A DNA stretch of 64,000 bases from Escherichia coli (GTDB lineage Bacteria > Pseudomonadota > Gammaproteobacteria > Enterobacterales > Enterobacteriaceae). Positions within the stretch are counted from its first letter, which is position 1. Each line of letters opens with the position of its first letter. The stretch lies in the NCBI RefSeq assembly GCF_046105845.1, contig NZ_CP151004.1; one strand, 5' to 3'. The position numbers and the translations under genes were made by a program. The notes below the pieces were generated by a model. It was not told the origin of the DNA and did no database searches. It saw nothing but the letters and a program-made list of their open reading frames with translations. Positions 1 through 59,615 of the stretch are shown here, piece after piece.

Positions 1-574
1 TTCTACCACCAACAACGTCGAACGCCAAAAACAGGCGGCTTTCTCTGACACTATTTTCGTGGTCGGTACGCGCCTGTTGACCAAAAAGGGTGGCGATATC
101 AAAGATTTCGCCGATCTGAAAGGCAAAGCCGTAGTCGTCACTTCCGGCACTACCTCTGAAGTTTTGCTCAACAAACTGAATGAAGAGCAAAAAATGAATA
201 TGCGAATTATCAGCGCCAAAGATCACGGTGACTCTTTCCGCACCCTGGAAAGCGGTCGTGCCGTTGCCTTTATGATGGATGATGCTCTGCTGGCTGGTGA
301 ACGTGCGAAAGCGAAGAAACCAGACAACTGGGAAATCGTCGGCAAGCCGCAGTCTCAGGAAGCCTACGGTTGTATGTTGCGTAAAGACGATCCGCAGTTC
401 AAAAAGCTGATGGATGACACTATCGCTCAGGTGCAGACCTCCGGTGAAGCGGAAAAATGGTTTGATAAATGGTTCAAAAATCCCATTCCGCCGAAAAACC
501 TGAACATGAATTTCGAACTGTCGGACGAAATGAAAGCACTGTTCAAAGAACCGAATGACAAAGCACTGAACTAA
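1..574 (+). CDS. gltI: Glutamate/aspartate ABC transporter periplasmic binding protein, C-terminal part (5' end lies outside window)
   Basis: Open frame from position 2 with no stop; translation ...DTIFVVGTRLLTKKGGDIKDFADLKGK... matches GltI C-terminus; followed by gltJKL. Confidence 0.9.
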   Translation, partial: STTNNVERQKQAAFSDTIFVVGTRLLTKKGGDIKDFADLKGKAVVVTSGTTSEVLLNKLNEEQKMNMRIISAKDHGDSFRTLESGRAVAFMMDDALLAGERAKAKKPDNWEIVGKPQSQEAYGCMLRKDDPQFKKLMDDTIAQVQTSGEAEKWFDKWFKNPIPPKNLNMNFELSDEMKALFKEPNDKALN

Positions 575-730
575 TTACAAGAACCAGGGGCGGAAATTCC
601 AGCCCTCTCGATTGTTACGTAGCACGGACAGACTATACGCCTGATGGTCGTTCCCCATCGGGCCTGAAAACCGCAATACGCTGGGTAACAATCTTCGAGG
701 GTAGCAGTTAACGCTGCTACCCTCTTTTTT
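570..730 (+). ncRNA. sroC: Probable SroC sRNA locus in the gltI-gltJ spacer (ends at intrinsic terminator)
   Basis: Established knowledge that SroC is processed from the gltI-gltJ intergenic part of the gltIJKL mRNA; 169-nt spacer ends in a strong hairpin plus T-tract; exact 5' end not determinable from sequence. Confidence 0.45.
697..730 (+). terminator. Intrinsic terminator/attenuator between gltI and gltJ
   Basis: GAGGGTAGCAG-ttaacg-CTGCTACCCTC stem followed by TTTTTT. Confidence 0.75.
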
Positions 731-743
731 CTGGAGTAGATTT

Positions 744-1484
744 ATGTCTATAGACTGGAACTGGGGTATTTTTTTACAACAAGCCCCGTTCGGCAACACC
801 ACCTATCTTGGTTGGATCTGGAGTGGTTTTCAGGTCACGATCGCTTTGTCGATCTGCGCCTGGATTATCGCTTTCCTCGTCGGTTCATTTTTCGGCATTT
901 TACGTACCGTTCCAAACCGTTTTCTCTCCGGTCTGGGTACGTTGTATGTCGAACTGTTCCGCAACGTGCCGTTGATTGTGCAATTCTTTACCTGGTATCT
1001 GGTGATCCCGGAGCTGCTGCCGGAGAAAATCGGCATGTGGTTTAAGGCCGAGCTGGATCCCAATATTCAGTTTTTCCTTTCATCCATGCTCTGCCTGGGG
1101 CTGTTTACCGCCGCCCGTGTTTGCGAACAGGTACGCGCCGCGATCCAGTCGCTGCCGCGTGGGCAGAAGAATGCCGCGCTGGCGATGGGTCTGACGCTGC
1201 CGCAGGCTTACCGCTATGTACTGTTGCCTAATGCTTATCGCGTTATCGTCCCGCCGATGACCTCCGAGATGATGAACCTGGTGAAAAACTCCGCCATCGC
1301 CTCGACCATCGGTCTGGTGGATATGGCGGCGCAGGCGGGTAAATTGCTCGACTACTCGGCCCACGCCTGGGAGTCGTTTACCGCCATCACGCTGGCGTAT
1401 GTGTTGATTAACGCGGTTATCATGCTGGTAATGACGCTGGTTGAACGTAAAGTTCGCCTGCCCGGCAACATGGGGGGCAAATAA
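744..1484 (+). CDS. gltJ: Glutamate/aspartate ABC transporter permease
   Basis: 246-aa ORF, polytopic membrane protein, second gene of gltIJKL order. Confidence 0.95.
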
Positions 1485-2158
1485 TGTACGAGTTTGACTG
1501 GAGTTCCATTGTCCCTTCCCTGCCATATCTGCTCGACGGGCTGGTGATCACCCTGAAAATCACCGTCACGGCAGTCGTGATTGGTATTTTGTGGGGCACC
1601 ATGCTGGCGGTGATGCGCTTGTCCAGCTTTGCGCCCGTAGCGTGGTTTGCCAAAGCCTACGTTAACGTATTCCGCTCGATTCCTTTAGTTATGGTTTTGC
1701 TGTGGTTTTACCTGATTGTGCCGGGTTTTCTGCAAAACGTGCTGGGATTATCGCCAAAAAATGATATCCGTTTAATTTCGGCGATGGTGGCGTTTTCGAT
1801 GTTTGAAGCGGCCTACTATTCAGAGATTATCCGCGCCGGTATTCAAAGTATTTCTCGTGGTCAGTCGAGCGCCGCGCTGGCGTTGGGGATGACTCACTGG
1901 CAGTCGATGAAACTGATTATTCTGCCGCAGGCGTTCCGCGCGATGGTGCCGCTGCTGCTCACTCAGGGCATCGTACTGTTCCAGGATACCTCACTGGTGT
2001 ATGTGTTATCTCTGGCCGATTTCTTCCGTACCGCCTCAACCATTGGTGAGCGTGATGGTACGCAGGTTGAGATGATCCTGTTTGCCGGATTTGTTTATTT
2101 CGTTATTAGCCTTAGCGCATCGTTGTTGGTCAGCTACTTGAAAAGAAGGACAGCATAA
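1484..2158 (+). CDS. gltK: Glutamate/aspartate ABC transporter permease
   Basis: 224-aa ORF, start overlaps gltJ stop (ATGA-type coupling). Confidence 0.95.
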
Positions 2159-2883
2159 TGATTACCCTGAAAAATGTTTCAAAATGGTATGGTCACTTTC
2201 AGGTGCTGACCGACTGCTCAACCGAAGTGAAAAAAGGCGAAGTGGTGGTGGTTTGCGGCCCGTCTGGTTCCGGCAAATCAACGCTGATTAAAACCGTCAA
2301 CGGCCTCGAACCGGTGCAGCAAGGTGAAATCACCGTCGATGGCATCGTGGTTAACGACAAGAAAACCGATCTGGCAAAGCTGCGTTCCCGCGTCGGGATG
2401 GTGTTCCAGCATTTCGAGTTGTTCCCCCATTTGTCGATTATTGAAAACCTGACCCTGGCGCAGGTGAAAGTGCTTAAACGCGATAAAGCACCCGCTCGTG
2501 AAAAAGCATTGAAATTGCTGGAGCGCGTCGGGCTTTCCGCACATGCCAATAAGTTTCCGGCGCAGCTTTCCGGCGGTCAGCAGCAGCGTGTGGCGATCGC
2601 TCGCGCATTGTGCATGGATCCTATCGCGATGCTGTTCGACGAACCGACATCGGCGCTGGATCCGGAGATGATCAACGAAGTGCTGGACGTGATGGTGGAA
2701 CTGGCGAACGAAGGAATGACCATGATGGTGGTGACCCACGAAATGGGCTTTGCCCGTAAAGTGGCGAATCGGGTGATCTTTATGGACGAGGGTAAAATTG
2801 TCGAAGACTCGCCGAAAGACGCTTTCTTCGATGATCCGAAATCGGACCGCGCAAAAGACTTCCTCGCGAAAATCCTGCATTAA
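2158..2883 (+). CDS. gltL: Glutamate/aspartate ABC transporter ATP-binding protein
   Basis: 241-aa ORF with Walker [13 protein letters not shown] signature LSGGQQQR, Walker [12 protein letters not shown]. Confidence 0.95.
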
Positions 2884-2890
2884 TCACTCT

Positions 2891-2930
2891 GGCGCGCATA
2901 CCCAATTGCGCGCCATCTCACGCTTTATCG
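2891..2930 (+). terminator. Candidate terminator hairpin downstream of gltL
   Basis: GGCGCGCA-tacccaat-TGCGCGCC stem; weak T-tract. Confidence 0.4.
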
Positions 2931-3000
2931 TTTCGCCCCTCGTATCTGTTACATCCTGGCGTTACCCTTGTCGCAAAGAAGCACACAACAAGGAGCAACA

Positions 3001-3936
3001 ATGGCACTGCCAATTCTGTTAGATTGCGACCCAGGTCATGACGACGCTATCGCAATAGTTCTCGCCCTCGCCTCACCAGAGCTTGATGTCAAAGCAATTA
3101 CGTCTTCCGCCGGAAACCAGACACCAGAAAAAACCTTACGCAATGTTCTGCGTATGCTGACCTTGCTTAATCGCACCGATATTCCGGTAGCAGGCGGCGC
3201 GGTAAAACCGTTAATGCGTGAGTTGATTATCGCGGACAATGTGCACGGCGAAAGCGGTCTCGACGGCCCGGCATTACCGGAACCGACGTTCGCACCGCAA
3301 AACTGTACGGCGGTAGAGCTGATGGCGAAAACACTACGTGAAAGTGCGGAACCTGTCACGATTGTTTCTACCGGACCGCAAACTAACGTTGCCTTGCTGC
3401 TCAATAGCCACCCGGAACTGCATAGCAAAATTGCCCGTATCGTGATTATGGGCGGTGCAATGGGGCTTGGTAACTGGACGCCTGCGGCTGAATTTAATAT
3501 TTACGTTGACCCGGAAGCGGCAGAAATTGTCTTCCAGTCAGGGATCCCGGTGGTGATGGCCGGTCTGGATGTTACTCACAAAGCACAAATTCACGTTGAG
3601 GACACCGAGCGTTTCCGCGCCATTGGCAACCCTGTTTCAACCATTGTTGCCGAACTGCTGGATTTCTTCCTCGAATATCATAAAGACGAAAAATGGGGCT
3701 TTGTCGGCGCACCGCTGCATGACCCATGCACCATCGCCTGGCTGTTAAAACCGGAGTTGTTTACCACTGTTGAGCGCTGGGTTGGCGTGGAAACACAAGG
3801 GAAATATACCCAGGGTATGACGGTTGTTGATTATTATTATCTGACCGGCAATAAACCGAATGCTACTGTAATGGTCGATGTTGATCGTCAGGGCTTTGTT
3901 GATTTACTGGCTGATCGTCTGAAATTTTACGCTTAA
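3001..3936 (+). CDS. rihA: Pyrimidine-specific ribonucleoside hydrolase RihA
   Basis: Translation from [15 protein letters not shown] (nucleoside hydrolase DxDxxxDD motif); AAGGAG RBS just upstream; longer ORF start at 2968 rejected. Confidence 0.9.
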
Positions 3937-3940
3937 TCAC

Positions 3941-3966
3941 TCGCCGGATGACATCACGCCATCCGG
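3941..3966. terminator. Palindromic hairpin in the 44-bp convergent rihA/ybeL junction (probable bidirectional terminator)
   Basis: GCCGGATG-acatcacgc-CATCCGGC perfect 8-bp inverted repeat. Confidence 0.5.
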
Positions 3967-3980
3967 CACCACTCATTTCA

Positions 3981-35292: not shown

Positions 35293-35521
35293 TCCTCTGA
35301 TTTACAAAAGACGCTAATTCGTCTTCCATAAACCATGACGATTAAGATTTATACATAATGCGCTGCATTGAGGAATTCCCTGAATGTGACGCAAATCACT
35401 TCAAAGAGTGAGCAACAGTCAGTATCATCATGTGAGTTAAACCCTCGCCGCCTGACGGTGAGGGTTTTCTTTTGGGTATGTTTATCTGCGACACTCGCAG
35501 TACCGACGACATGGAGTAAAA

Positions 35522-39136: not shown

Positions 39137-39507
39137 CTATACTTCCTCCGTGTTTTCGATGAGATGTAAGGTAACCAATTTTTGCCGATTCGGCTAATGC
39201 GTTTCCATTATCAAATCGATAAGTTTTACCTTACAACCTTCGTAAGACAACTTTGTGAACTTTGCACCGCCAGCGGCGATAAAAAGTAAAATGGCCCCCT
39301 TTCCAGGTGACCGTGTAATCTGAACTACCCTTTGGTATCTTCAGCGCCTGCCTGCAGGCTGAGGTGTTGCCCTTACAAATGCAACAACGACATGGATTAC
39401 AACACCCTCATAAACAAAGGGCAATCACCTGATCTAAGCTCTTACCTATGACAGTGATAGGTTATGCCTTTTACTCGACTTTTGCACTGACTGAAAAGGA
39501 CAAATTA

Positions 39508-41512: not shown

Positions 41513-42733
41513 ATGTCTATTTATAAAATTCCTCTTCCGCTCAATATTCTGGAAGCTGCAAAAGAACGTATTACCTGGACACTTAACACCCTACCCCGCG
41601 TTTGTGTCTCATTTTCTGGCGGCAAAGACTCTGGTTTAATGCTGCATCTGACAGCCGAACTTGCTCGACAAATGGGCAAAAAAATCTGTGTTTTGTTTAT
41701 CGACTGGGAGGCGCAATTCTCTTGCACCATTAACTATGTTCAGTCCCTGCGCGAGTTGTACACCGATGTGATCGAAGAGTTTTACTGGGTTGCGCTCCCG
41801 CTTACGACGCAAAATTCCCTTTCACAATACCAACCCGAATGGCAGTGCTGGGAACCTGATGTCGAATGGGTACGTCAGCCCCCGCAAGATGCGATAACCG
41901 ATCCTGACTTTTTCTCCTTTTACCAGCCTGGCATGACCTTCGAACAATTTGTGCGTGAGTTTGCCGAATGGTTTTCGCAAAAACGCCCGGCGGCGATGAT
42001 GATCGGCATCCGTGCGGATGAGTCCTACAACCGTTTTGTCGCCATCGCCAGTTTAAATAAACAACGTTTTGCCGACGATAAACCCTGGACTACGGCCGCA
42101 CCAGGCGGGCATAGCTGGTACATTTACCCCATTTACGACTGGAAAGTGGCTGATATCTGGACCTGGTATGCAAATCATCAAAGTCTCTGCAACCCACTGT
42201 ATAACCTAATGTATCAGGCAGGCGTTCCTCTGCGTCATATGCGAATTTGCGAACCTTTTGGCCCGGAGCAACGACAAGGATTATGGCTCTATCACGTTAT
42301 CGAACCGGATCGCTGGGCTGCTATGTGCGCACGAGTCAGCGGGGTAAAAAGTGGCGGCATTTACGCCGGACATGACAATCATTTTTATGGTCATCGGAAA
42401 ATCCTCAAGCCCGAACATTTAGACTGGCAGGAGTATGCATTATTGCTACTCAACAGCATGCCGGAGAAAACAGCTGAGCATTATCGCAATAAAATCGCCA
42501 TTTATTTGCACTGGTATCAGAAAAAAGGCATCGAGGTTCCACAAACCCAGCAAGGGGACATTGGCGCGAAAGATATCCCCTCCTGGCGGCGAATATGCAA
42601 AGTTTTACTCAATAACGATTACTGGTGTCGGGCATTATCATTTAGCCCGACCAAAGCGAAGAACTATCAGCGTTATAACGAACGAATAAAAGGAAAACGT
42701 CAGGAATGGGGGATACTATGCAACAACGATTAA
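41513..42733 (+). CDS. ybdN: PP-loop ATPase / PAPS-reductase-like protein (IbrA-like), uncharacterized
   Basis: 406 aa; PP-loop SFSGGKDS motif visible in translation. Confidence 0.85.
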   Translation: MSIYKIPLPLNILEAAKERITWTLNTLPRVCVSFSGGKDSGLMLHLTAELARQMGKKICVLFIDWEAQFSCTINYVQSLRELYTDVIEEFYWVALPLTTQNSLSQYQPEWQCWEPDVEWVRQPPQDAITDPDFFSFYQPGMTFEQFVREFAEWFSQKRPAAMMIGIRADESYNRFVAIASLNKQRFADDKPWTTAAPGGHSWYIYPIYDWKVADIWTWYANHQSLCNPLYNLMYQAGVPLRHMRICEPFGPEQRQGLWLYHVIEPDRWAAMCARVSGVKSGGIYAGHDNHFYGHRKILKPEHLDWQEYALLLLNSMPEKTAEHYRNKIAIYLHWYQKKGIEVPQTQQGDIGAKDIPSWRRICKVLLNNDYWCRALSFSPTKAKNYQRYNERIKGKRQEWGILCNND

Positions 42734-43335
42734 CGCAGGATTTAACCCAATTTCTCGCCAGCTTGCCGGAAGACGATCGCATCAAAGCGATTAATGAAAT
42801 CCGCATGGCGATCCATCAGGTTAGCCCCTTTCGAGAAGAGCCAGTGGATTGCGTTCTGTGGGTTAAAAACAGCCAACTTATGCCTAATGATTACAACCCA
42901 AACAACGTGGCACCACCCGAAAAAAAACTGCTGAAAAAATCCATTGAAATAGATGGTTTTACCCAACCCATTGTGGTCACGCATACGGATAAAAATGCCC
43001 TGGAAATCGTGGATGGTTTTCACCGCCATGAAATTGGTAAAGGCTCATCATCGTTAAAATTACGCTTAAAAGGTTATTTGCCGGTGACCTGTCTGGAAGG
43101 TACGCGTAATCAACGCATCGCCGCGACTATTCGTCATAATCGCGCCCGTGGACGTCACCAAATCACTGCCATGTCAGAAATCGTCCGTGAACTCAGCCAG
43201 TTGGGATGGGACGATCATAAAATCGGCAAAGAGCTGGGAATGGACGGCGACGAAGTGCTGCGCCTGAAGCAAATTAACGGCCTGCAAGAACTGTTTGCCG
43301 ACCGTCAATTTTCCCGCGCCTGGACGGTTAAATAA
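42706..43335 (+). CDS. ybdM: ParB-like nuclease-domain protein (IbrB-like), uncharacterized
   Basis: 209 aa; IVDGFHRH ParB/Srx-type motif; 28-bp overlap with ybdN. Confidence 0.8.
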   Translation: MGDTMQQRLTQDLTQFLASLPEDDRIKAINEIRMAIHQVSPFREEPVDCVLWVKNSQLMPNDYNPNNVAPPEKKLLKKSIEIDGFTQPIVVTHTDKNALEIVDGFHRHEIGKGSSSLKLRLKGYLPVTCLEGTRNQRIAATIRHNRARGRHQITAMSEIVRELSQLGWDDHKIGKELGMDGDEVLRLKQINGLQELFADRQFSRAWTVK

Positions 43336-44496
43336 CTACAGCTGGCGCAGGCGTTCAGCTGCTGCCAGCAACGTCGATTCCTTCTTGGCAAAACAGAGAC
43401 GAATCAGTTTATGGGGGAAGGGATCGGCGCAAAACACCGACAGCGGAATCGCCGCTACACCGTGCTCCCGCGTCAGCCACTGGCAAAACTCAACGTCATC
43501 CAGGGTAGAAACCGCGCTGTAATCCACCAGCAAAAAGTATGTACCTTCACACGGTAAAATCTCCAGCCGGCTTTCATTTAAAGCATTCACCAGAATATCG
43601 CGTTTCTGGCGATAAAAGTCCGGTAACGCAAGATAATGCTCAGGTTCTGCACGTAGCATATCCGCAAGTGCCAGCTGTGCCGGGGTATTCACCGAAAAGG
43701 TCAGATACTGGTGTACCTTGCGAATTTCAGCGCTGATGGGCGCTGGCGCAACGCAATAACCCACTTTCCAGCCGGTCATATGATAGGTCTTGCCAAATGA
43801 AGAAACTGCCACCGCCCGCTCACGCAGCTGCGGATGCGCCAGCACGCTGGCATGGCCCTGTTGTGAAAAGTTGATGTGCTCGTAAACTTCATCGCTAATG
43901 ACAAAAATCTCGTGCCCGCCGATCGCCTGCCACAGAGCGGAGAAATCAGCCTGCTGCCAGACAGTTGCACTGGGGTTATGCGGGGTGTTGAGGATCACCA
44001 GTCGGGTGCGCTCGCTTAACAATGCGGCAAATTCCTGCCAGTCCACGCGAAAATGCGGTGGTTGCAGTGCAATACGTTTCACTATTCCCCCCGAAAGCGC
44101 GATGGCGGGCGCGTAACTGTCATAGCTGGGATCAAAGCAGATCACTTCATCACCATTGCGCACCAATGCGGTAATCGCTGCATATAACGCTTCCGTCGCC
44201 CCTGCCGTTACGGTGATATCGCTATCGGCATCCGGTTGATAGCCATACAGACGTTCCGTTTTCTGAGCAATCGCCTCGCGCAAGGCCTGCACGCCAGTCA
44301 TAGGCGCGTATTGGTTTGCCCCCTGGGCAACGTGGTACGCCAGCCGCTCTTGTAAATAGCGCGGACCATCAAAATCAGGAAAGCCTTGCGAAAGGTTAAT
44401 CGCCTGGTGTTGCTGCGCCAGCGCGCTCATCTGGGTGAAAATAGTGGTGCCAAGTTGTGGAAGTTTGCTTTGTGGAATCAGAGGGTTATTTGTCAT
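43336..44496 (-). CDS. ybdL: PLP-dependent methionine aminotransferase
   Basis: 386 aa; fold-type I aminotransferase with SFGKT PLP-lysine motif. Confidence 0.9.
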   Translation of the reverse strand: MTNNPLIPQSKLPQLGTTIFTQMSALAQQHQAINLSQGFPDFDGPRYLQERLAYHVAQGANQYAPMTGVQALREAIAQKTERLYGYQPDADSDITVTAGATEALYAAITALVRNGDEVICFDPSYDSYAPAIALSGGIVKRIALQPPHFRVDWQEFAALLSERTRLVILNTPHNPSATVWQQADFSALWQAIGGHEIFVISDEVYEHINFSQQGHASVLAHPQLRERAVAVSSFGKTYHMTGWKVGYCVAPAPISAEIRKVHQYLTFSVNTPAQLALADMLRAEPEHYLALPDFYRQKRDILVNALNESRLEILPCEGTYFLLVDYSAVSTLDDVEFCQWLTREHGVAAIPLSVFCADPFPHKLIRLCFAKKESTLLAAAERLRQL

Positions 44497-44604: not shown

Positions 44605-45693
44605 ATGCCTCACAATCCTATCCGCGTGGTCGTCGGCCCGGCTAACTACTTTTCACATCCAGGAAGTTTCAATCACCTGCACGATTTTTTCACTGATGAA
44701 CAGCTTTCTCACGCGGTGTGGATCTACGGCGAACGCGCCATTGCTGCGGCGCAAACAAAACTTCCGCCAGCGTTTGAACTGCCAAGGGCAAAGCATATTT
44801 TGTTTCGCGGCCATTGCAGCGAAAGCGATGTACAACAACTGGCGGCTGAGTCCGGTGACGATCGCAGCGTGGTGATTGGCGTCGGCGGCGGCGCACTGCT
44901 CGACACCGCGAAAGCCCTCGCCCGCCGTCTCGGTCTGCCGTTTGTTGCCGTTCCGACGATCGCCGCCACCTGCGCCGCCTGGACACCGCTCTCCGTCTGG
45001 TATAACGATGCCGGACAGGCGCTGCATTATGAGATTTTCGACGACGCCAATTTTATGGTGCTGGTGGAGCCAGAGATTATCCTCAACGCGCCGCACCAAT
45101 ATCTGCTGGCGGGGATCGGTGACACGCTGGCGAAATGGTATGAAGCGGTGGTGCTGGCTCCGCAACCAGAAACGTTGCCGCTAACCGTGCGGCTGGGGAT
45201 CAATAATGCGCAGGCCATTCGCGACGTCTTGTTAAACAGTAGCGAACAGGCGCTGAGCGATCAGCAAAAACAACAGTTAACGCAATCATTTTGCGATGTG
45301 GTGGATGCTATTATTGCTGGTGGTGGGATGGTCGGTGGTCTGGGCGATCGTTTTACGCGTGTGGCGGCGGCCCATGCCGTGCATAACGGTCTGACCGTTT
45401 TGCCGCAAACCGAGAAGTTTCTCCACGGCACCAAAGTCGCCTACGGAATTCTGGTGCAAAGCGCCTTGCTGGGTCAGGATGATGTGCTGGCGCAATTAAC
45501 AGAGGCGTATCAGCGTTTTCATCTGCCGACTACGCTGGCGGAGCTGGAAGTGGATATCAATAATCAGGTGGAGATCGACAAAATGATTGCCCACACCCTA
45601 CGTCCAGTGGAATCCATTCATTACCTGCCAGTCACGCTGACACCAGATACCTTGCGTGCAGCGTTCGAAAAAGTGGAATCGTTTAAAGCCTGA
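44605..45693 (+). CDS. ybdH: Iron-containing alcohol dehydrogenase family protein (hydroxycarboxylate dehydrogenase)
   Basis: 362 aa; GVGGGALLDTAK glycine-rich motif. Confidence 0.88.
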   Translation: MPHNPIRVVVGPANYFSHPGSFNHLHDFFTDEQLSHAVWIYGERAIAAAQTKLPPAFELPRAKHILFRGHCSESDVQQLAAESGDDRSVVIGVGGGALLDTAKALARRLGLPFVAVPTIAATCAAWTPLSVWYNDAGQALHYEIFDDANFMVLVEPEIILNAPHQYLLAGIGDTLAKWYEAVVLAPQPETLPLTVRLGINNAQAIRDVLLNSSEQALSDQQKQQLTQSFCDVVDAIIAGGGMVGGLGDRFTRVAAAHAVHNGLTVLPQTEKFLHGTKVAYGILVQSALLGQDDVLAQLTEAYQRFHLPTTLAELEVDINNQVEIDKMIAHTLRPVESIHYLPVTLTPDTLRAAFEKVESFKA

Positions 45694-45702
45694 CGTACAC
45701 AT

Positions 45703-45900
45703 TTAGCAGCAGCGCGCGCCGCCTTTTCCACCGTAGCGCGCGTCCTGCCGCTCACGGAAAAACTCCTCGTAGGTCATCGGCGTTTGATCGGGATGGTTAA
45801 CCCGCATATGTTCGACATAGTTGTCGTAATCAGGCATACCAATCATCAGCTTCGCCGCCTGACCTAAATATTTTCCGGCTTTTGCCAGTGAATCAAACAT
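45703..45900 (-). CDS. ybdD: Small DUF466 protein downstream of cstA
   Basis: 65 aa from [19 protein letters not shown]...; conserved pairing with cstA. Confidence 0.85.
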
Positions 45901-53358: not shown

Positions 53359-54315
53359 GTGAGACTCGCCTCGCTCTACCGCAACGCCCTTCTATTAACA
53401 GGACTTTTGCTTTCAGGAATAGTCGCAGTTCAGGCCGCCGACTGGCCGCGTCAGATTACTGACAGCCGTGGCACTCATTCCCTGGAAAGCCAGCCGCAGC
53501 GTATTGTTTCCACCAGCGTCACCCTGACCGGCTCACTGCTGGCGATTGATGCTCCGGTGATTGCCAGCGGCGCGACCACGCCAAATAACCGCGTCGCGGA
53601 TGACCAGGGCTTTTTACGCCAGTGGAGCAAGGTGGCGAAAGAACGCAAACTGCAACGGCTCTATATCGGCGAACCGAGCGCCGAAGCGGTGGCCGCGCAA
53701 ATGCCGGATCTGATTTTAATCAGCGCAACCGGCGGCGATTCGGCGCTGGCGCTGTACGATCAGCTTTCCACCATCGCCCCGACATTAATCATCAATTACG
53801 ACGACAAAAGCTGGCAGTCGCTGTTAACGCAACTTGGCGAAATTACCGGGCATGAGAAACAAGCGGCAGAGCGGATTGCGCAGTTTGATAAGCAACTGGC
53901 GGCGGCGAAAGAGCAAATCAAATTACCGCCGCAGCCGGTCACGGCCATTGTCTATACCGCCGCTGCACACAGTGCCAATCTCTGGACGCCTGAATCAGCA
54001 CAAGGGCAGATGCTGGAACAACTCGGCTTTACGCTGGCGAAGTTGCCAGAAGGGTTAAACGCCAGCCAAAGCCAGGGCAAACGCCATGACATCATTCAGC
54101 TTGGTGGGGAAAATCTGGCGACGGGATTAAATGGCGAGTCACTATTCCTGTTCGCCGGTGATCAGAAAGACGCCGATGCGATTTATGCCAATCCACTGCT
54201 CGCGCACCTGCCTGCAGTACAAAACAAGCAGGTTTATGCGCTGGGAACCGAGACGTTCCGACTGGATTACTACAGCGCCATGCAAGTGCTGGAACGACTT
54301 AAGGCGCTGTTTTAA
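53359..54315 (+). CDS. fepB: Ferric enterobactin periplasmic binding protein
   Basis: 318 aa, GTG start, signal peptide. Confidence 0.93.
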
Positions 54316-54318
54316 GCA

Positions 54319-55569
54319 TTAACTGTCGGACGCTGTCACCTGCGGCGGCGTCTGGCGAAAACGCCGCAACTCCACCAGCACCAGCAACAACAACACGCCG
54401 ATAATCAACAAACCAAAACCGCTCGCGCTTGCGGAAGCAACCGGTGTCATCATCGCTCCCAGACCGCCTAACAGCGCCGCGCCTATGGCATCGCCCGTCA
54501 CGTTTTGCGCCGTCCACAAACCGTTAATCCGCCCTAACATCGCTTCCGGGGTTTGCGTTTGCAGCATTGTGTATTGCAGCAACGAACTAACCGCGCTCAG
54601 CCAGCCGAACAGTGCCAGGCAAACCACGCCTAAAATCCACATCGGCATCAGGCCAAACAGACCAATGGCGAGGAACGATCCCAGCGTGGAGAGCAGCATC
54701 AATAACCCTGGTCGCGCGCTATGTGCCAGCTTCCCGCTGGTTAACGCGCCAATAGCCGCGCCGAGCGGGATCGCCGCATAGAGAAAACCAATCTGTGCCG
54801 CCGACATCTGCCAGTTGTCAGCCAGCGCCGGATACAGTACCCGCACCGCGCTCGCCATCGTCAATAAACCACCCAACAGCGCAATCCCTCCTACCAGCGG
54901 GCTGGCGAGCAGAAAACGAAATCCTGCCAGTAATGATTTCAACGGATGCTCACGCGGCTGAGGTGGCGGTGGCAACGCCGGAAGGCTTAATAACGGCAGC
55001 AAGGTAATAAACGTGCCCGCCGCCGCCAGCCCGTAGTTCCAGGCTACGCCGCCGGTCGCCAGCAATAAACCGCCAATCATGGGCGAAATCACCGACCCCA
55101 GGCGCACGGTCAACATGGTGATCGCCCCGGCCTGCATTAAGTTTTCACGCCCTACCAGTGCAGGTGTCGCCGCCAGTAGCGCCGTAACGCCAAGCGATGC
55201 GAAAAAACCATCCCATAATCCGAGTAAATAGATTGCCAGCAAAGATGGCTCCGGCAGCAGCGCGTTCAGGCACAGTCCAATGAAGCCAATGCCACAGGTG
55301 CCGCGCGCCAGCAAAATCACTTTTTTGCGCTCATAGCGATCCGCCAGCACACCGCCGACCATCAGGCCAACAAACATCGCGCCGCCGGTCAGCGTCACCG
55401 AAAGCCCCACCTGCCAGGTAGAATGCGTCATCATCTGGATCTGCACCGGCACCGCGACGCCGAGCAAACCCAGAGACACAATTGAGATAAAACGAGCGAG
55501 GAATACTGCGCGAAACGCCGGGTGCGTTTTCAACAGGCTGAGGTTAAGCAGCCAGGATTGTTTATTCAT
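54319..55569 (-). CDS. entS: Enterobactin exporter (MFS)
   Basis: 416-aa MFS membrane protein; tail-to-tail with fepB with a 3-bp gap. Confidence 0.93.
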
Positions 55570-56684: not shown

Positions 56685-57673
56685 TTTACGTCTCTCGCCG
56701 ATTAATCATCACCTGTTTGCTGCTAATTACCGCCTGTGTGGTTGCAGGTATCTGGGGATTACGCAGCGGTACCGTCACGCTGGAAACCTCGCAGATATTC
56801 GCCGCGTTGATGGGCGATGCGCCGCGCAGTATGACGATGGTGGTCACCGAATGGCGTTTACCACGCGTGCTGATGGCGCTGTTAATTGGCGCGGCTCTGG
56901 GCGTCAGTGGCGCGATTTTTCAGTCGCTGATGCGTAACCCACTCGGCAGTCCTGACGTAATGGGCTTTAACACCGGGGCGTGGAGCGGCGTGCTGGTGGC
57001 GATGGTGCTGTTTGGTCAGGACCTGACGGCTATCGCCCTAGCAGCAATGGCGGGCGGCATTGTCACCTCGCTGCTGGTCTGGCTGCTCGCATGGCGTAAC
57101 GGCATCGACACCTTTCGGTTGATTATTATCGGTATCGGTGTTCGCGCCATGCTGGTGGCCTTTAATACCTGGCTGTTGCTGAAAGCGTCTTTAGAAACGG
57201 CACTAACAGCGGGTTTGTGGAATGCCGGATCGCTCAACGGCCTGACGTGGGCAAAAACCTCGCCTTCCGCACCCATCATTATATTGATGCTAATTGCCGC
57301 CGCCTTACTGGTACGCCGGATGCGCTTGCTGGAAATGGGCGATGATACCGCGTGTGCGCTGGGCGTCAGCGTCGAACGTTCGCGGCTATTAATGATGCTG
57401 GTCGCCGTAGTGCTTACCGCAGCTGCCACTGCCCTGGCGGGGCCGATTTCCTTTATTGCTTTAGTCGCGCCACACATTGCCCGGCGCATTAGCGGCACCG
57501 CTCGCTGGGGGCTGACCCAGGCGGCGCTGTGCGGGGCGTTGTTACTGCTGGCGGCCGATCTCTGCGCCCAACAACTGTTTATGCCGTATCAACTTCCGGT
57601 TGGCGTCGTTACCGTCAGCCTCGGCGGTATTTACCTTATCGTCTTGTTAATTCAGGAGTCTCGCAAAAAATGA
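56681..57673 (+). CDS. fepG: Ferric enterobactin ABC transporter permease
   Basis: 330 aa; start overlaps fepD stop. Confidence 0.95.
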   Translation: MIYVSRRLIITCLLLITACVVAGIWGLRSGTVTLETSQIFAALMGDAPRSMTMVVTEWRLPRVLMALLIGAALGVSGAIFQSLMRNPLGSPDVMGFNTGAWSGVLVAMVLFGQDLTAIALAAMAGGIVTSLLVWLLAWRNGIDTFRLIIIGIGVRAMLVAFNTWLLLKASLETALTAGLWNAGSLNGLTWAKTSPSAPIIILMLIAAALLVRRMRLLEMGDDTACALGVSVERSRLLMMLVAVVLTAAATALAGPISFIALVAPHIARRISGTARWGLTQAALCGALLLLAADLCAQQLFMPYQLPVGVVTVSLGGIYLIVLLIQESRKK

Positions 57674-58485
57674 CCGAATCAGTAGCCCGTTTGCGTGGCG
57701 AACAGTTAACCCTCGGATATGGCAAATATACCGTTGCGGAAAATCTGACTGTAGAAATTCCTGATGGTCACTTCACGGCAATTATCGGGCCAAATGGCTG
57801 CGGTAAATCCACGTTACTGCGTACCTTAAGCCGCCTGATGACGCCTGCTCACGGGCATGTCTGGCTGGATGGCGAGCACATTCAACATTACGCCAGTAAA
57901 GAGGTTGCACGCCGGATTGGCCTGTTGGCGCAAAACGCCACAACGCCGGGAGATATCACCGTGCAGGAGCTGGTGGCGCGTGGGCGTTACCCGCATCAAC
58001 CGCTGTTTACCCGCTGGCGCAAAGAAGATGAAGAAGCGGTAACGAAAGCGATGCAGGCCACGGGAATCACTCATCTGGCAGATCAAAGCGTGGATACCCT
58101 TTCTGGCGGACAACGCCAGCGAGCGTGGATAGCAATGGTGCTGGCCCAGGAAACGGCAATTATGCTGCTCGATGAACCAACGACCTGGCTGGATATCAGT
58201 CATCAGATTGATCTCCTGGAACTGTTAAGCGAACTGAACCGCGAGAAAGGCTATACCCTGGCGGCGGTGCTGCACGATCTTAATCAGGCCTGTCGTTACG
58301 CCAGCCATTTGATTGCATTGCGGGAAGGGAAAATTGTTGCTCAGGGAGCGCCGAAGGAGATTGTCACTGCTGAATTGATCGAGCGCATTTATGGTCTGCG
58401 CTGCATGATTATTGACGATCCGGTAGCCGGAACTCCGCTCGTGGTGCCGCTCGGACGAACGGCACCTTCAACTGCCAAGATTTAA
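57670..58485 (+). CDS. fepC: Ferric enterobactin ABC transporter ATP-binding protein
   Basis: 271 aa from MTESVARLRGEQ; Walker A GPNGCGKST, LSGGQRQR, Walker B MLLDEPTTWLD; ATGA overlap with fepG. Confidence 0.95.
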   Translation: MTESVARLRGEQLTLGYGKYTVAENLTVEIPDGHFTAIIGPNGCGKSTLLRTLSRLMTPAHGHVWLDGEHIQHYASKEVARRIGLLAQNATTPGDITVQELVARGRYPHQPLFTRWRKEDEEAVTKAMQATGITHLADQSVDTLSGGQRQRAWIAMVLAQETAIMLLDEPTTWLDISHQIDLLELLSELNREKGYTLAAVLHDLNQACRYASHLIALREGKIVAQGAPKEIVTAELIERIYGLRCMIIDDPVAGTPLVVPLGRTAPSTAKI

Positions 58486-59615
58486 ACTAAGTGCTCTTCC
58501 ATCACGGCATCCTGTTTTCTGGATGCCATCGCATGGCGCAACAGCACGCCACCACAAGCCACCATCCCGCCGATCATCGCAGAAAGGATCACAATAATCG
58601 CCTTACCCGGACCATCTTTTTTCACTGGCAATGACGGGCTTAACTGATATTTAAACGGCGTAAAATTCACATCGTTGATATTTGCTTTTGTTAGCTGCTC
58701 AACAAGATACTGACGATTACGTAATTCACCGTTCAGTTCCGCAACGTCAGTGACCGCTTTTTCAATTTCCAGTTTGCGTTCAATACCGTCTGCGCCGAGA
58801 GAAATAGAGAAATCGGGGTCATCTTTAACGGCCTGACCATTACTGTAAACGGGCTTTTTAATTCCTGCCGCGTTGGCAATGTCGAGTGAATAATTGAGGC
58901 GCTGAATGTTTGCATCAAGTTGATTTTTCGTTTTAATGCGATCCTGAGCCAGTTTTTCTTTTTCAAACTGGGTTTTGATCTCCAGTTTATTACGGACGTT
59001 TTCTATCGACTCTTTCACCACCAACGCAGAGATATAATCGATATACCCGCTCAAAACGGTCTGCGCCTCTTCACTGGTTGGCGCGGTAAAACTTAGCGTC
59101 CAGGAGGTATACAGTGACGGTTCATCTTTTTTCTTACTGGCATTGTCATCAACCGCTTTCATTTTTTCGCTCAATGCGACAATTGCGCGATGCAAATCCA
59201 GTTCGTCGATTTTCGCCTCTTTTAATTGGTCCATCACATAAGGTGTTGAGCGCAGGTACTCTTCCAGCAAGCTAACCGACTGAAACTTCTTGATAAACAG
59301 GTTAAATGCTTCTGTACGATCAATTTTGATATCCAGATCCAGCACACGAAGCTTAGTGAATGTTTTCTCAAGCGCCTGCCACTGAACAGGTTCTGGAGGC
59401 GTGACAACCGCCGCGCTGGTCCATTTTTGCGGCAGGATGAAAGAGATCAGTAAACCTGCGCAGGCAAATGCAAAAATGACCGCCATGACCGTTTTTTTGG
59501 CCCGCCATAAAACTGCGATTAGATTAAGTAAATCAATTTCATTATTACTGGGCGACGCCAGAGGATACTCGGGAAAATGAGTGTCACTTCCCTGTTTAAT
59601 ATTCAGTGATGACAT
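58482..59615 (-). CDS. fepE: Polysaccharide co-polymerase family protein FepE (O-antigen very-long-chain length regulator)
   Basis: 377 aa; stop codon overlaps fepC stop on opposite strand. Confidence 0.9.
   Translation of the reverse strand: MSSLNIKQGSDTHFPEYPLASPSNNEIDLLNLIAVLWRAKKTVMAVIFAFACAGLLISFILPQKWTSAAVVTPPEPVQWQALEKTFTKLRVLDLDIKIDRTEAFNLFIKKFQSVSLLEEYLRSTPYVMDQLKEAKIDELDLHRAIVALSEKMKAVDDNASKKKDEPSLYTSWTLSFTAPTSEEAQTVLSGYIDYISALVVKESIENVRNKLEIKTQFEKEKLAQDRIKTKNQLDANIQRLNYSLDIANAAGIKKPVYSNGQAVKDDPDFSISLGADGIERKLEIEKAVTDVAELNGELRNRQYLVEQLTKANINDVNFTPFKYQLSPSLPVKKDGPGKAIIVILSAMIGGMVACGGVLLRHAMASRKQDAVMEEHLV

Follow-up and report, generated by a model that had tools for sequence, protein, structure and literature searches.

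Shared and abutting stop codons at the fepC/fepE, fepB/entS and ybdM/ybdL junctions of Escherichia coli, and candidate 3′ stem-loops inside the opposing genes

Geometry of three tail-to-tail junctions

In the window, the stretch of 64,000 nucleotides of E. coli DNA that was analysed here, the gene pairs fepC/fepE, fepB/entS and ybdM/ybdL converge with little or no DNA between their stop codons (Table 1). In a preliminary description it had been proposed that fepC and fepE share stop-codon sequence within a 4-bp overlap, and according to both the ORF list and RefSeq this is right to the base. The stop codon of fepC is TAA at 58483-58485 of the plus strand and that of fepE is TAA (TTA on the plus strand) at 58482-58484; 4 bp (TTAA, 58482-58485) are common to both ORFs and 2 bp to both stop codons. 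The shared sequence was originally given as TTTAA, which does contain the TTAA tetramer with both stops, but its extra T is just flanking. Also the 3-bp gap between fepB and entS (54315/54319) agrees with the sequence and with RefSeq, and the absence of a gap between ybdM, which ends at 43335, and ybdL, which is annotated from 43336 (TAA followed directly by CTA), agrees with the sequence and with the annotation of strain GF60. In two E. coli genomes, fepC/fepE and fepB/entS have an identical geometry in the RefSeq/PGAP annotation, and the zero gap of ybdM/ybdL is also found in E. fergusonii and E. albertii.

The stop codons of fepE, fepB and ybdM are genuine, since the C-termini of the encoded proteins (...LV, ...LF and ...AWTVK, each followed by the stop) coincide across the other genera examined. 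The fepC/fepE pair consists of convergent CDSs with genuine ends and with both stops in one tetramer, which places it in the YTAR class of overlaps. Such a tetramer is present only at this junction; fepB/entS and ybdM/ybdL do not overlap.

Table 1. Positions in the window of the genes, junction elements and candidate RNA signals.
Feature	Position	Strand	Remarks
ybdM CDS	42706..43335	+	IbrB-like, ParB_N domain
ybdL CDS	43336..44496	-	methionine-oxo-acid transaminase
Hairpin D, weaker stem-loop, weak evidence	43341..43369	+	5 nt past ybdM stop, inside ybdL
fepB CDS	53359..54315	+	
Spacer GCA between fepB and entS stop codons	54316..54318	.	3 bp
entS CDS	54319..55569	-	
Hairpin C, candidate 3′ stem-loop of fepB transcript	54327..54354	+	11-bp stem, 6-nt loop, no U-tract
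Candidate rut site, fepB read-through RNA	54355..54565	+	antisense to last EntS membrane helix
fepC CDS	57670..58485	+	271 aa, last gene in fepDGC; from annotation
Hairpin A, candidate 3′ stem-loop of fepE transcript	58443..58466	-	10-bp stem, tetraloop, no U-tract
TTAA tetramer containing both stop codons	58482..58485	.	4-bp ORF overlap, YTAR class
wzz(fepE) CDS	58482..59615	-	377 aa; C-terminus ...LV and stop at ancestral position
Hairpin B, candidate 3′ stem-loop of fepDGC transcript	58506..58527	+	7-bp stem, 8-nt loop, no U-tract
Candidate rut site, fepDGC read-through RNA	58528..58635	+	antisense to FepE C-terminal membrane segment

Frequency and origin of the tight junctions

As a background set we used 63 convergent CDS pairs from eight 50-kb stretches spread evenly over XL1-Blue, a K-12-type genome. 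The gap was 3 bp or less in 13 of these 63 pairs (21%; median gap of the set, 51 bp), and nine (14%) were exact 4-bp YTAR overlaps. For the nine convergent pairs of the window (whose positions 1-3978 are not colinear with GF60) the gaps measure 44, 100, 53, 40, 120, 0, 9, 3 and -4 bp, and tight junctions are not enriched in the window: the probability of finding at least three out of nine at 3 bp or less is 0.28, and enrichment is likewise rejected when a cut-off of 10 bp is applied (P=0.12). The gap of 9 bp belongs to hcxA/ybdD, a fourth tight junction in the window that was absent from the preliminary description.

Lillo & Krakauer (2007; PMC2174442) counted 58 convergent overlaps in E. coli, named the YTAR tetramers and proposed a model in which stop-codon mutation generates convergent overlaps. 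The fepC/fepE junction resembles these overlaps in its orientation, in the 4-bp overlap and in the TTAA sequence holding both stops, and the loss of a stop followed by run-on of the frame matches the extension of FepC described below, without any material difference; fepB/entS (+3) and ybdM/ybdL (0) are near-misses, not overlaps. The three junctions are thus ordinary members of a common tail-to-tail class that was described years ago. Since one in five convergent pairs shows such a geometry, the geometry alone cannot point to regulation.

Among 80 Enterobacteriaceae species, the -4 overlap of fepC and fepE is found only in Escherichia. At the other loci where fepE lies beside fepC the spacer measures 12-206 bp, except for one unreliable call of -20 (locus L023). 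Hairpins are present in the spacers that were read, those of Citrobacter, Salmonella, L006 and LD93-1, and in the spacer of L006 the scanner called a terminator. A fepC/fepE spacer of 35-36 bp is kept in 5 of 5,426 E. coli genomes; LD93-1 and NCTC9967 are strains that have retained both spacer and terminator. FepC ends in ...GRTAPSTAKI in Escherichia versus ...VVPLGR(N/Q)K in other genera, and FepE ends in ...LV everywhere. The last 6-7 codons of fepC (...TAPSTAKI) are an extension that is present only in Escherichia, and the frame is uninterrupted in all six Escherichia sequences inspected. All Escherichia loci have 3 bp between fepB and entS, as against 15-370 bp in most other genera, whose spacers often contain hairpins that by eye are REP-like or Box-C-like. 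At 11 loci outside Escherichia, independent compaction has brought the two genes to within 3 bp or less of each other (L012, L028, L034, L049, L055, L060, L061, L068, L072, L078 and L080).

Using parsimony from these outgroups, not a dated tree, we infer that the tight state is derived in Escherichia. In that lineage, the short stem-loop-bearing spacers of related genera are absent from these junctions. At fepC/fepE, both the spacer and the old fepC stop would have been lost, upon which the fepC frame would have run on for 6-7 codons and then halted at a TAA whose sequence interlocks with the fepE stop as read on the complementary strand (TTA+A), in what may be called a 'stop-codon trap'. Such a trap would account for the genome-wide spike of YTAR overlaps of exactly 4 bp. 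At fepB/entS the spacer is simply missing, and at ybdM/ybdL the ybdL-hcxA gene pair sits flush between ybdM and ybdD. The orthologous junctions of Salmonella, Citrobacter and Enterobacter, which carry bidirectional hairpins and REP elements, consist of the same genes in unchanged orientation and have a strong hairpin close to both stop codons (ΔG -18 to -19.5 kcal/mol), but there the hairpin is located in a spacer of 30-130 bp, whereas Escherichia has no spacer. By eye, the Salmonella hairpin has A5 and T5 at its two sides; it was not called by the terminator scanner, which marks a limit of that scanner. The Citrobacter hairpin has no T-run.

Stem-loops and C-rich tracts past the stop codons

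It had further been claimed that the junctions leave no room for a terminator. Indeed, there is no intergenic space at the three junctions, and a consensus scan detected no hairpin-plus-T-run terminator within ~600 bp past any of the six stops; the few hits that the scan gave elsewhere were at or below shuffle expectation. The claim is nevertheless misleading, as the transcripts of fepE, fepC and fepB each have a stable stem-loop 11-20 nt after the stop codon, within the CDS of the partner. These hairpins, A, B and C, are GC-rich stem-loops that follow soon after a stop codon (ΔG -12 to -18 kcal/mol), as in intrinsic terminators, but the U run (at least 5 of 8) expected right after the stem is lacking within ~600 bp of all six stops, and the hairpin tails, which have no U-tract, read ACGAGCGG, AUCGCAUG and GCGAAAAC. 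No Rfam family matches any of the junctions.

Hairpins A and B flank the fepC/fepE junction at a distance of ~40 nt from each other, each being contained in one CDS. Hairpin A starts 15 nt past the fepE stop, is made of fepC codons 258-265, and is more stable on the minus strand (ΔG -18.1 kcal/mol) than on the plus strand (-13.8). Hairpin B (ΔG -12.2 kcal/mol) starts 20 nt past the fepC stop and is made of the fepE codons for A-S-R-K-Q-D-A. The sequence of hairpin A is invariant across six Escherichia sequences, and the segment between the two hairpins is highly variable. In silent-site tests based on six related Escherichia sequences only and made without phylogenetic correction, none of the eight third-codon positions in hairpin A varies compared to 42% gene-wide (2.7% of windows are equally invariant; empirical P=0.027), and none of the seven in hairpin B varies compared to 57% gene-wide (1.1% of windows; empirical P=0.011). 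The stem-loops seem to persist inside the codons of the neighbouring gene, where they would constrain silent sites.

Hairpin C, which starts 11 nt past the fepB stop within the C-terminal codons of entS, has a ΔG of -17.5 kcal/mol on the plus strand and of -10.0 on the minus strand, where it is weaker because three G.U pairs turn into C.A mismatches. In hairpins A and C alike, the strand that corresponds to the read-through RNA of the partner gives the more stable fold. In seven Escherichia sequences 77 of 77 cells of hairpin C are paired and every change in the stem keeps the pair. Changes affect a single side in four pairs and both sides in no pair; covariation was rejected, as the changes are one-sided only and the shuffle control was uninformative. 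Silent-site conservation was not found in hairpin C (P=0.57). As for hairpin D, the 120-nt flank in which it lies has a z-score of -4.1 versus dinucleotide shuffles, and its local ΔG is about -9.6 kcal/mol in the window versus -18.9 in GF60. The entS and ybdL flanks contain weak hairpins only.

The RNA that would be transcribed past the fepC and fepB stops is C-rich and G-poor, as in rut sites. The fepC flank contains 0.37 C and 0.17-0.19 G from +1 to +150 past the stop (99.3-99.7th percentile of all 100-nt windows), and the fepB flank contains 0.36-0.40 C and 0.17-0.25 G from +1 to +250 (95.6-99.9th percentile); right after these two stops the C-minus-G skew is at the 99.3-99.9th percentile. 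For fepE, ybdM and ybdL the sequence past the stop falls into the 93-97th percentile; the entS flank has no such skew, and the skew is not strongly rut-like in the entS, ybdL and ybdM flanks.

Five of the six flanks of the three pairs fold better than composition-matched shuffles (z of -2.2 or below). For convergent pairs in general, the raw folding energy differs strongly between tight and loose pairs (p=5e-6), but tight flanks are also GC-richer (0.54 versus 0.50), which explains most of the excess in hairpin stability, and the effect that is left after correction for composition is weak (p=0.03). The generalisation that hairpins lie inside the partner gene wherever a pair is tight was dropped, because without the three pairs described here p is 0.18 (z-score). 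Neither is the C-minus-G skew generally higher in tight pairs (p=0.21).

How transcription may end at the junctions

The absence of intergenic space and of a canonical terminator, the latter as judged by the consensus scan, implies that RNA polymerase must enter the antisense strand of the partner gene, and to this extent the read-through proposed in the preliminary description holds. Together, the embedded stem-loops, the conservation of silent sites and the C>G tracts suggest that read-through is short, more likely covering tens to a few hundred nucleotides than being open-ended. The searchable Term-seq tables of Adams et al. 2021 (PMC7815308) contain no 3′ ends for fepC, fepE, entS, ybdL and ybdM, and for fepB they contain a 3′ end upstream of the gene and none at its 3′ end; if growth in that study was iron-replete, these Fur-repressed genes would have been poorly expressed.

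Rho-dependent 3′ ends in E. coli are located just downstream of stable stem-loops without U-tracts, are followed by sequence enriched in C over G, and are trimmed by PNPase/RNase II (Dar & Sorek 2018; PMC6061677). Hairpin B of fepDGC and hairpin C of fepB are similar in that a U-less stem-loop after the stop is followed by C>G sequence, although here the stem-loop and the candidate rut site are wholly inside the opposing CDS instead of in an intergenic 3′ UTR. The explanation that we favour, and to which we give an even chance, combines ordinary junctions and derived loss of the spacers with short read-through that is ended by Rho and/or collision, followed by trimming back to the embedded hairpins; its termination part we infer from the sequence. 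Each transcript would run past its stop into the antisense strand of the partner, where it would meet a U-less stem-loop built of partner codons (A for fepE, B for fepDGC and C for fepB). In the case of fepDGC and fepB an untranslated C-rich, G-poor stretch would come next, on which Rho could load, and termination would take place within roughly 100-300 nt. Trimming by 3′-to-5′ exonucleases up to the hairpin would then generate mature 3′ ends that overlap those of the partner by tens of nucleotides. Head-on collisions of polymerases at the hairpins may contribute, since fes-ybdZ-entF-fepE, fepDGC, entS and fepB are all Fur-regulated units (PMC4145685, PMC7157518), and repression of all four by Fur (PMC4145685) means that the partners are induced together. 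With such co-induction, mutual termination is more plausible than a reciprocal switch.

Collision might also do the whole work. Co-induced polymerases would then pause at the hairpins, collide and be dislodged by trailing polymerases, with neither Rho nor a U-tract being needed. Hundreds of convergent genes in E. coli are reported to have bidirectional terminators of this kind (Ju et al. 2019 as cited in Wang et al. 2022, bioRxiv 10.1101/2022.10.23.513370). These share with our junctions a convergent pair, a non-intrinsic hairpin element and, presumably, co-expression of the partners, U-less hairpins flanking the junctions here and the partners of both fepC/fepE and fepB/entS being Fur-repressed and switched on together. 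The published element is, however, situated in the region of transcript overlap between the genes, and the characterised example ynaJ-uspE, as presented there, has a single intergenic element, whereas at fepC/fepE there is no intergenic DNA and two hairpins ~40 nt apart lie in two CDSs travelled by ribosomes. In addition, the model predicts efficient termination only at high expression (bioRxiv 10.1101/2022.10.23.513370) and has no need of strong C>G tracts, and co-expression of ybdM and ybdL is not known; we consider collision as the sole cause unlikely. The opposite reading is that compaction was neutral, spacers having been lost by drift, with diffuse ends being made via Rho and RNases and the hairpins being by-products of GC-rich coding sequence. 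That tight junctions are frequent (21%) and evolved more than once, in different genera, that the hairpin excess of tight pairs is mostly gone after composition correction, that the entS and ybdL flanks have no convincing elements, and that convergent overlaps have been modelled as arising from stop-codon mutation (PMC2174442) would all be in agreement with it. It accounts poorly, though, for five of six flanks beating composition-matched shuffles, for silent sites that are invariant in hairpins A and B amid highly variable neighbours, and for the greater strength of hairpins A and C on the read-through strand, and we judge it improbable.

The preliminary description had raised possible convergent-transcription interference. 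In a reading of this kind, as regulatory interference or antisense control, read-through would lower expression of the partner via polymerase occlusion or via dsRNA that is cleaved by RNase III. Transcription cannot avoid running into the antisense strand of the partner, and the mature 3′ ends predicted for fepC and fepE would be complementary over ~85 nt. Antisense crosstalk between convergent E. coli genes reportedly has a precedent in arfA/mscL. However, a reciprocal switch between partners that have one repressor and one pathway in common has no obvious logic, the hairpins and rut-like tracts near the stops suggest that read-through is curtailed early, and one in five convergent pairs has the same geometry. 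A text search of the literature found nothing relevant on antisense or overlap at fepE/fepC and gave no support for interference at these genes, and we regard this reading as very unlikely.

A more specific idea, which we put forward tentatively and hold to be rather doubtful, is that in Escherichia the intergenic hairpin terminator of fepDGC/fepE has been replaced by two CDS-embedded stem-loops, one of which would have been created by the new FepC tail, its codons for R-T-A-P pairing with the conserved codons for V-P-L-G. Both would have been selected at the nucleotide level for providing 3′ ends or collision sites to two co-induced iron-starvation operons.

The annotation of every E. coli genome contains tight convergent genes. 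They account for roughly one fifth of convergent pairs, and surveys of them go back to the 2000s; as stated, the observation matters little. Its added value is modest and consists in offering a testable case of what becomes of 3′-end signals after loss of a spacer. In practice it bears on the annotation of 3′ UTRs, on how polar effects of ent/fep mutations on enterobactin uptake are read, and on plans to recode genes of the ent/fep cluster synonymously or to delete them: with a clean deletion of fepE or entS, fepDGC or fepB, respectively, would lose its presumed 3′ stem-loop and rut site. If the hairpins embedded in coding sequence do act as proposed, the five E. coli genomes that keep the fepC/fepE spacer would constitute a natural control.

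Position and frequency of the tight convergent junctions

The window carries the ent/fep (enterobactin) region in an orientation reversed relative to K-12, and the closest of 5,426 complete E. coli genomes is ~98.8% identical to it. The preliminary description had placed three tail-to-tail junctions here, and all three placements were exact, window coordinates and RefSeq annotation being in agreement (see table). The geometry of fepC/fepE and fepB/entS is identical in the RefSeq annotation of the E. coli genomes GF60 and XL1-Blue (K-12-type), and the zero gap of ybdM/ybdL is also found in that of GF60. A fourth tight junction, hcxA/ybdD (9 bp; window 44605-45900), was absent from that description; its spacing is kept in E. 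fergusonii and E. albertii, and the divergent ybdL/hcxA pair fits flush between its neighbours, 0 bp from ybdM and 9 bp from ybdD.

Coordinates of junctions, hairpins and Rfam matches in the window (dG in kcal/mol, read-through strand/other strand)
Feature	Position	Strand	Remarks
fepC/fepE	fepC end 58485; fepE start 58482	+/-	TTAA at 58482-58485 contains both stops
fepB/entS	fepB end 54315; entS start 54319	+/-
ybdM/ybdL	ybdM end 43335; ybdL start 43336	+/-
hcxA (ybdH)	end 45693	+
ybdD	start ~45703	-
Hairpin A	58443-58466		15 nt past fepE stop; dG -18.1/-13.8
Hairpin B	58506-58527		20 nt past fepC stop; dG -12.2/-11.6
Hairpin C	54327-54354		11 nt past fepB stop; dG -17.5/-10.0
sroC sRNA	570-732	+	Rfam, above gathering score
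cspA-type thermoregulator leader	21939-22297	-	Rfam, above gathering score; overlaps cspE gene and leader
rnk leader	35368-35476	+	Rfam, above gathering score
STnc70	39281-39374	-	Rfam, weak (44 bits, cut-off 40)

As background, RefSeq tables for eight 50-kb stretches, evenly distributed over XL1-Blue, yielded 63 convergent CDS pairs with a median gap of 51 bp. Nine of these (14%) overlap by exactly 4 bp, all through a tetramer of the YTAR class, and 13 (21%) have gaps of 3 bp or less. Tight junctions were not enriched in the window, whose nine convergent pairs have gaps of 44, 100, 53, 40, 120, 0, 9, 3 and -4 bp (3/9 at 3 bp or less; P=0.28 against the XL1-Blue sample). For E. coli, the survey of Lillo and Krakauer (2007; PMC2174442) put the number of convergent overlaps at 58. 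The observation of three such junctions is confirmed as ordinary and already known.

Origin of the junctions

A FepC scan with one genome per species gave 80 Enterobacteriaceae loci, in which orthologues were located and extended to their stop codons. Within this set, the -4 overlap of fepC/fepE was restricted to Escherichia (the window, two E. coli, E. albertii, E. whittamii and Escherichia sp. MOD1). In most Citrobacter species the two genes are separated by 30-54 bp containing a GC hairpin, and in Salmonella arizonae and diarizonae the spacer is 54 bp (GAAAAAGCCGGATAATCGCTATCCGGCTTTTT). FepC ends in ...VVPLGR(N/Q)K outside Escherichia but in ...VVPLGRTAPSTAKI within it, whereas FepE ends in ...LV in all genera compared, which indicates that Escherichia lost both the spacer and the earlier fepC stop. 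The fepC frame would then have continued as far as the complement of the fepE stop, which trapped it.

In L006, a genome carrying the E. coli label, fepC and fepE are 36 bp apart; the spacer holds a scanner-called hairpin terminator on the fepE strand, and the FepE of L006 is ~76% identical to that of the window, comparable to its distance from Citrobacter FepE. This divergent allele was matched across its length in 5 of the 5,426 complete genomes (LD93-1, H5, H6, MSB1_9D and NCTC9967); the accompanying spacer, read in LD93-1 and L006, is 35-36 bp (L006 6798-6835, L083 1652-1688). The allele may have been acquired from another species by recombination.

At fepB/entS neither protein is extended in the cross-genus comparison. 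Every Escherichia locus has a 3-bp gap here, against 15-370 bp in most other genera, often with REP-like or Box-C-like hairpins as judged by eye; 11 non-Escherichia loci were independently compacted to 3 bp or less. Across Enterobacteriaceae (L007-L082) this spacer is very variable (-28 to ~370 bp) and its repeat families differ by genus: REP-like in Citrobacter, long palindromes in Salmonella, and Box-C-like CCCTCTCCC...GGGAGAGGG in Enterobacter.

The zero gap of ybdM/ybdL is kept in E. fergusonii and E. albertii. In C. freundii (L093) ybdL-hcxA is missing from this position, and ybdM and ybdD face each other across 50 bp that include a REP-like hairpin. The same-strand ybdN (PAPS reductase plus DUF3440) and ybdM (ParB_N, named 'IbrB-like') overlap by 28 nt (42706-42733; window 41513-43335); Citrobacter and Intestinirhabdus also carry this pair, but without ybdL.

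Hairpins and rut-like tracts inside the partner genes

The preliminary description had argued that the junctions leave no room for a terminator and imply read-through, an interpretation that is supported in part. A terminator scan found no hairpin-plus-T-run site within ~600 bp past any of the six stops, so that transcripts must read through into the partner. The flanks nevertheless carry features: hairpins and rut-like (Rho-loading) tracts lie inside the partner genes. Hairpins A, B and C are U-less stem-loops past the fepE, fepC and fepB stops, respectively. A and C fold less stably on the opposite strand than on the read-through strand, because their G.U pairs are replaced there by C.A mismatches, and the new FepC tail codons supply the 3' arm of A. 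Downstream of B and C lie C-rich, G-poor tracts in the 99.3-99.9th percentile of all 100-nt windows; these run antisense to the C-terminal membrane segments of FepE and EntS. The arrangement matches the Rho-dependent 3' ends of Dar and Sorek (PMC6061677), where a stable stem-loop lacking a U-tract precedes C>G sequence and the RNA is trimmed by PNPase and RNase II. Read-through is thus probably short, the embedded hairpins and tracts being its predicted ends.

Third-codon positions were compared in six Escherichia sequences. In fepC 42% vary, but 0/8 in hairpin A (2.7% of windows are equally invariant), directly after seven consecutive variable positions; in fepE 57% vary, but 0/7 in hairpin B (1.1%). 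The ~40 nt separating A and B are highly variable. Hairpin C showed no silent-site conservation (P=0.57); pairing is kept at 4/4 variable stem positions, with no double compensations. Median folding was -24.9 kcal/mol for 38 tight flanks versus -19.8 for 106 loose ones (p=5e-6). Tight flanks have a higher GC content, and after correction for composition the effect is weak and, without the three focal pairs, not significant (p=0.18); five of the six focal flanks have z <= -2.2.

No 3'-end data for the junction genes were found, including in the searched Term-seq tables of Adams et al. 2021 (PMC7815308). Among the entries there is, at K-12 624680 (-), a highly abundant 'orphan' 3' end that lies 170 nt upstream of the fepB ORF. 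It maps to window ~53189 (+) in the entC-fepB intergenic region, inside the long leader of fepB, and could stem from attenuation or from a short leader RNA.

Predicted co-induction and other features of the window

The fes-ybdZ-entF-fepE, fepDGC, entS and fepB units are treated as Fur-repressed (PMC4145685, PMC7157518), so that each fep/ent pair would be induced together under iron limitation. Under such co-induction a reciprocal antisense switch has no evident rationale, and convergent-transcription interference, also raised previously as a possibility, is speculative. Co-induction would suit the collision-driven bidirectional termination of Ju, Wang and Liu, which requires dense traffic and a hairpin that causes pausing (bioRxiv 10.1101/2022.10.23.513370). 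We give an even chance to a joint model in which the loss of the spacer is derived and involved a stop-codon trap, U-less stem-loops are embedded in coding sequence, and termination depends on Rho, with collisions perhaps contributing; apart from the necessary read-through, we infer its steps from sequence.

None of the four Rfam matches above gathering score lies at a junction. Window 1-3978 contains gltI'-sroC-gltJKL-rihA followed directly by ybeL; ybeQ/ybeR/djlB/ybeT, which adjoin ybeL in GF60, are absent, as in some other E. coli, among them EFF60 and 7/2. The 44-bp rihA/ybeL spacer carries a REP-like hairpin, GCCGGATGACATCACGCCATCCGGC.
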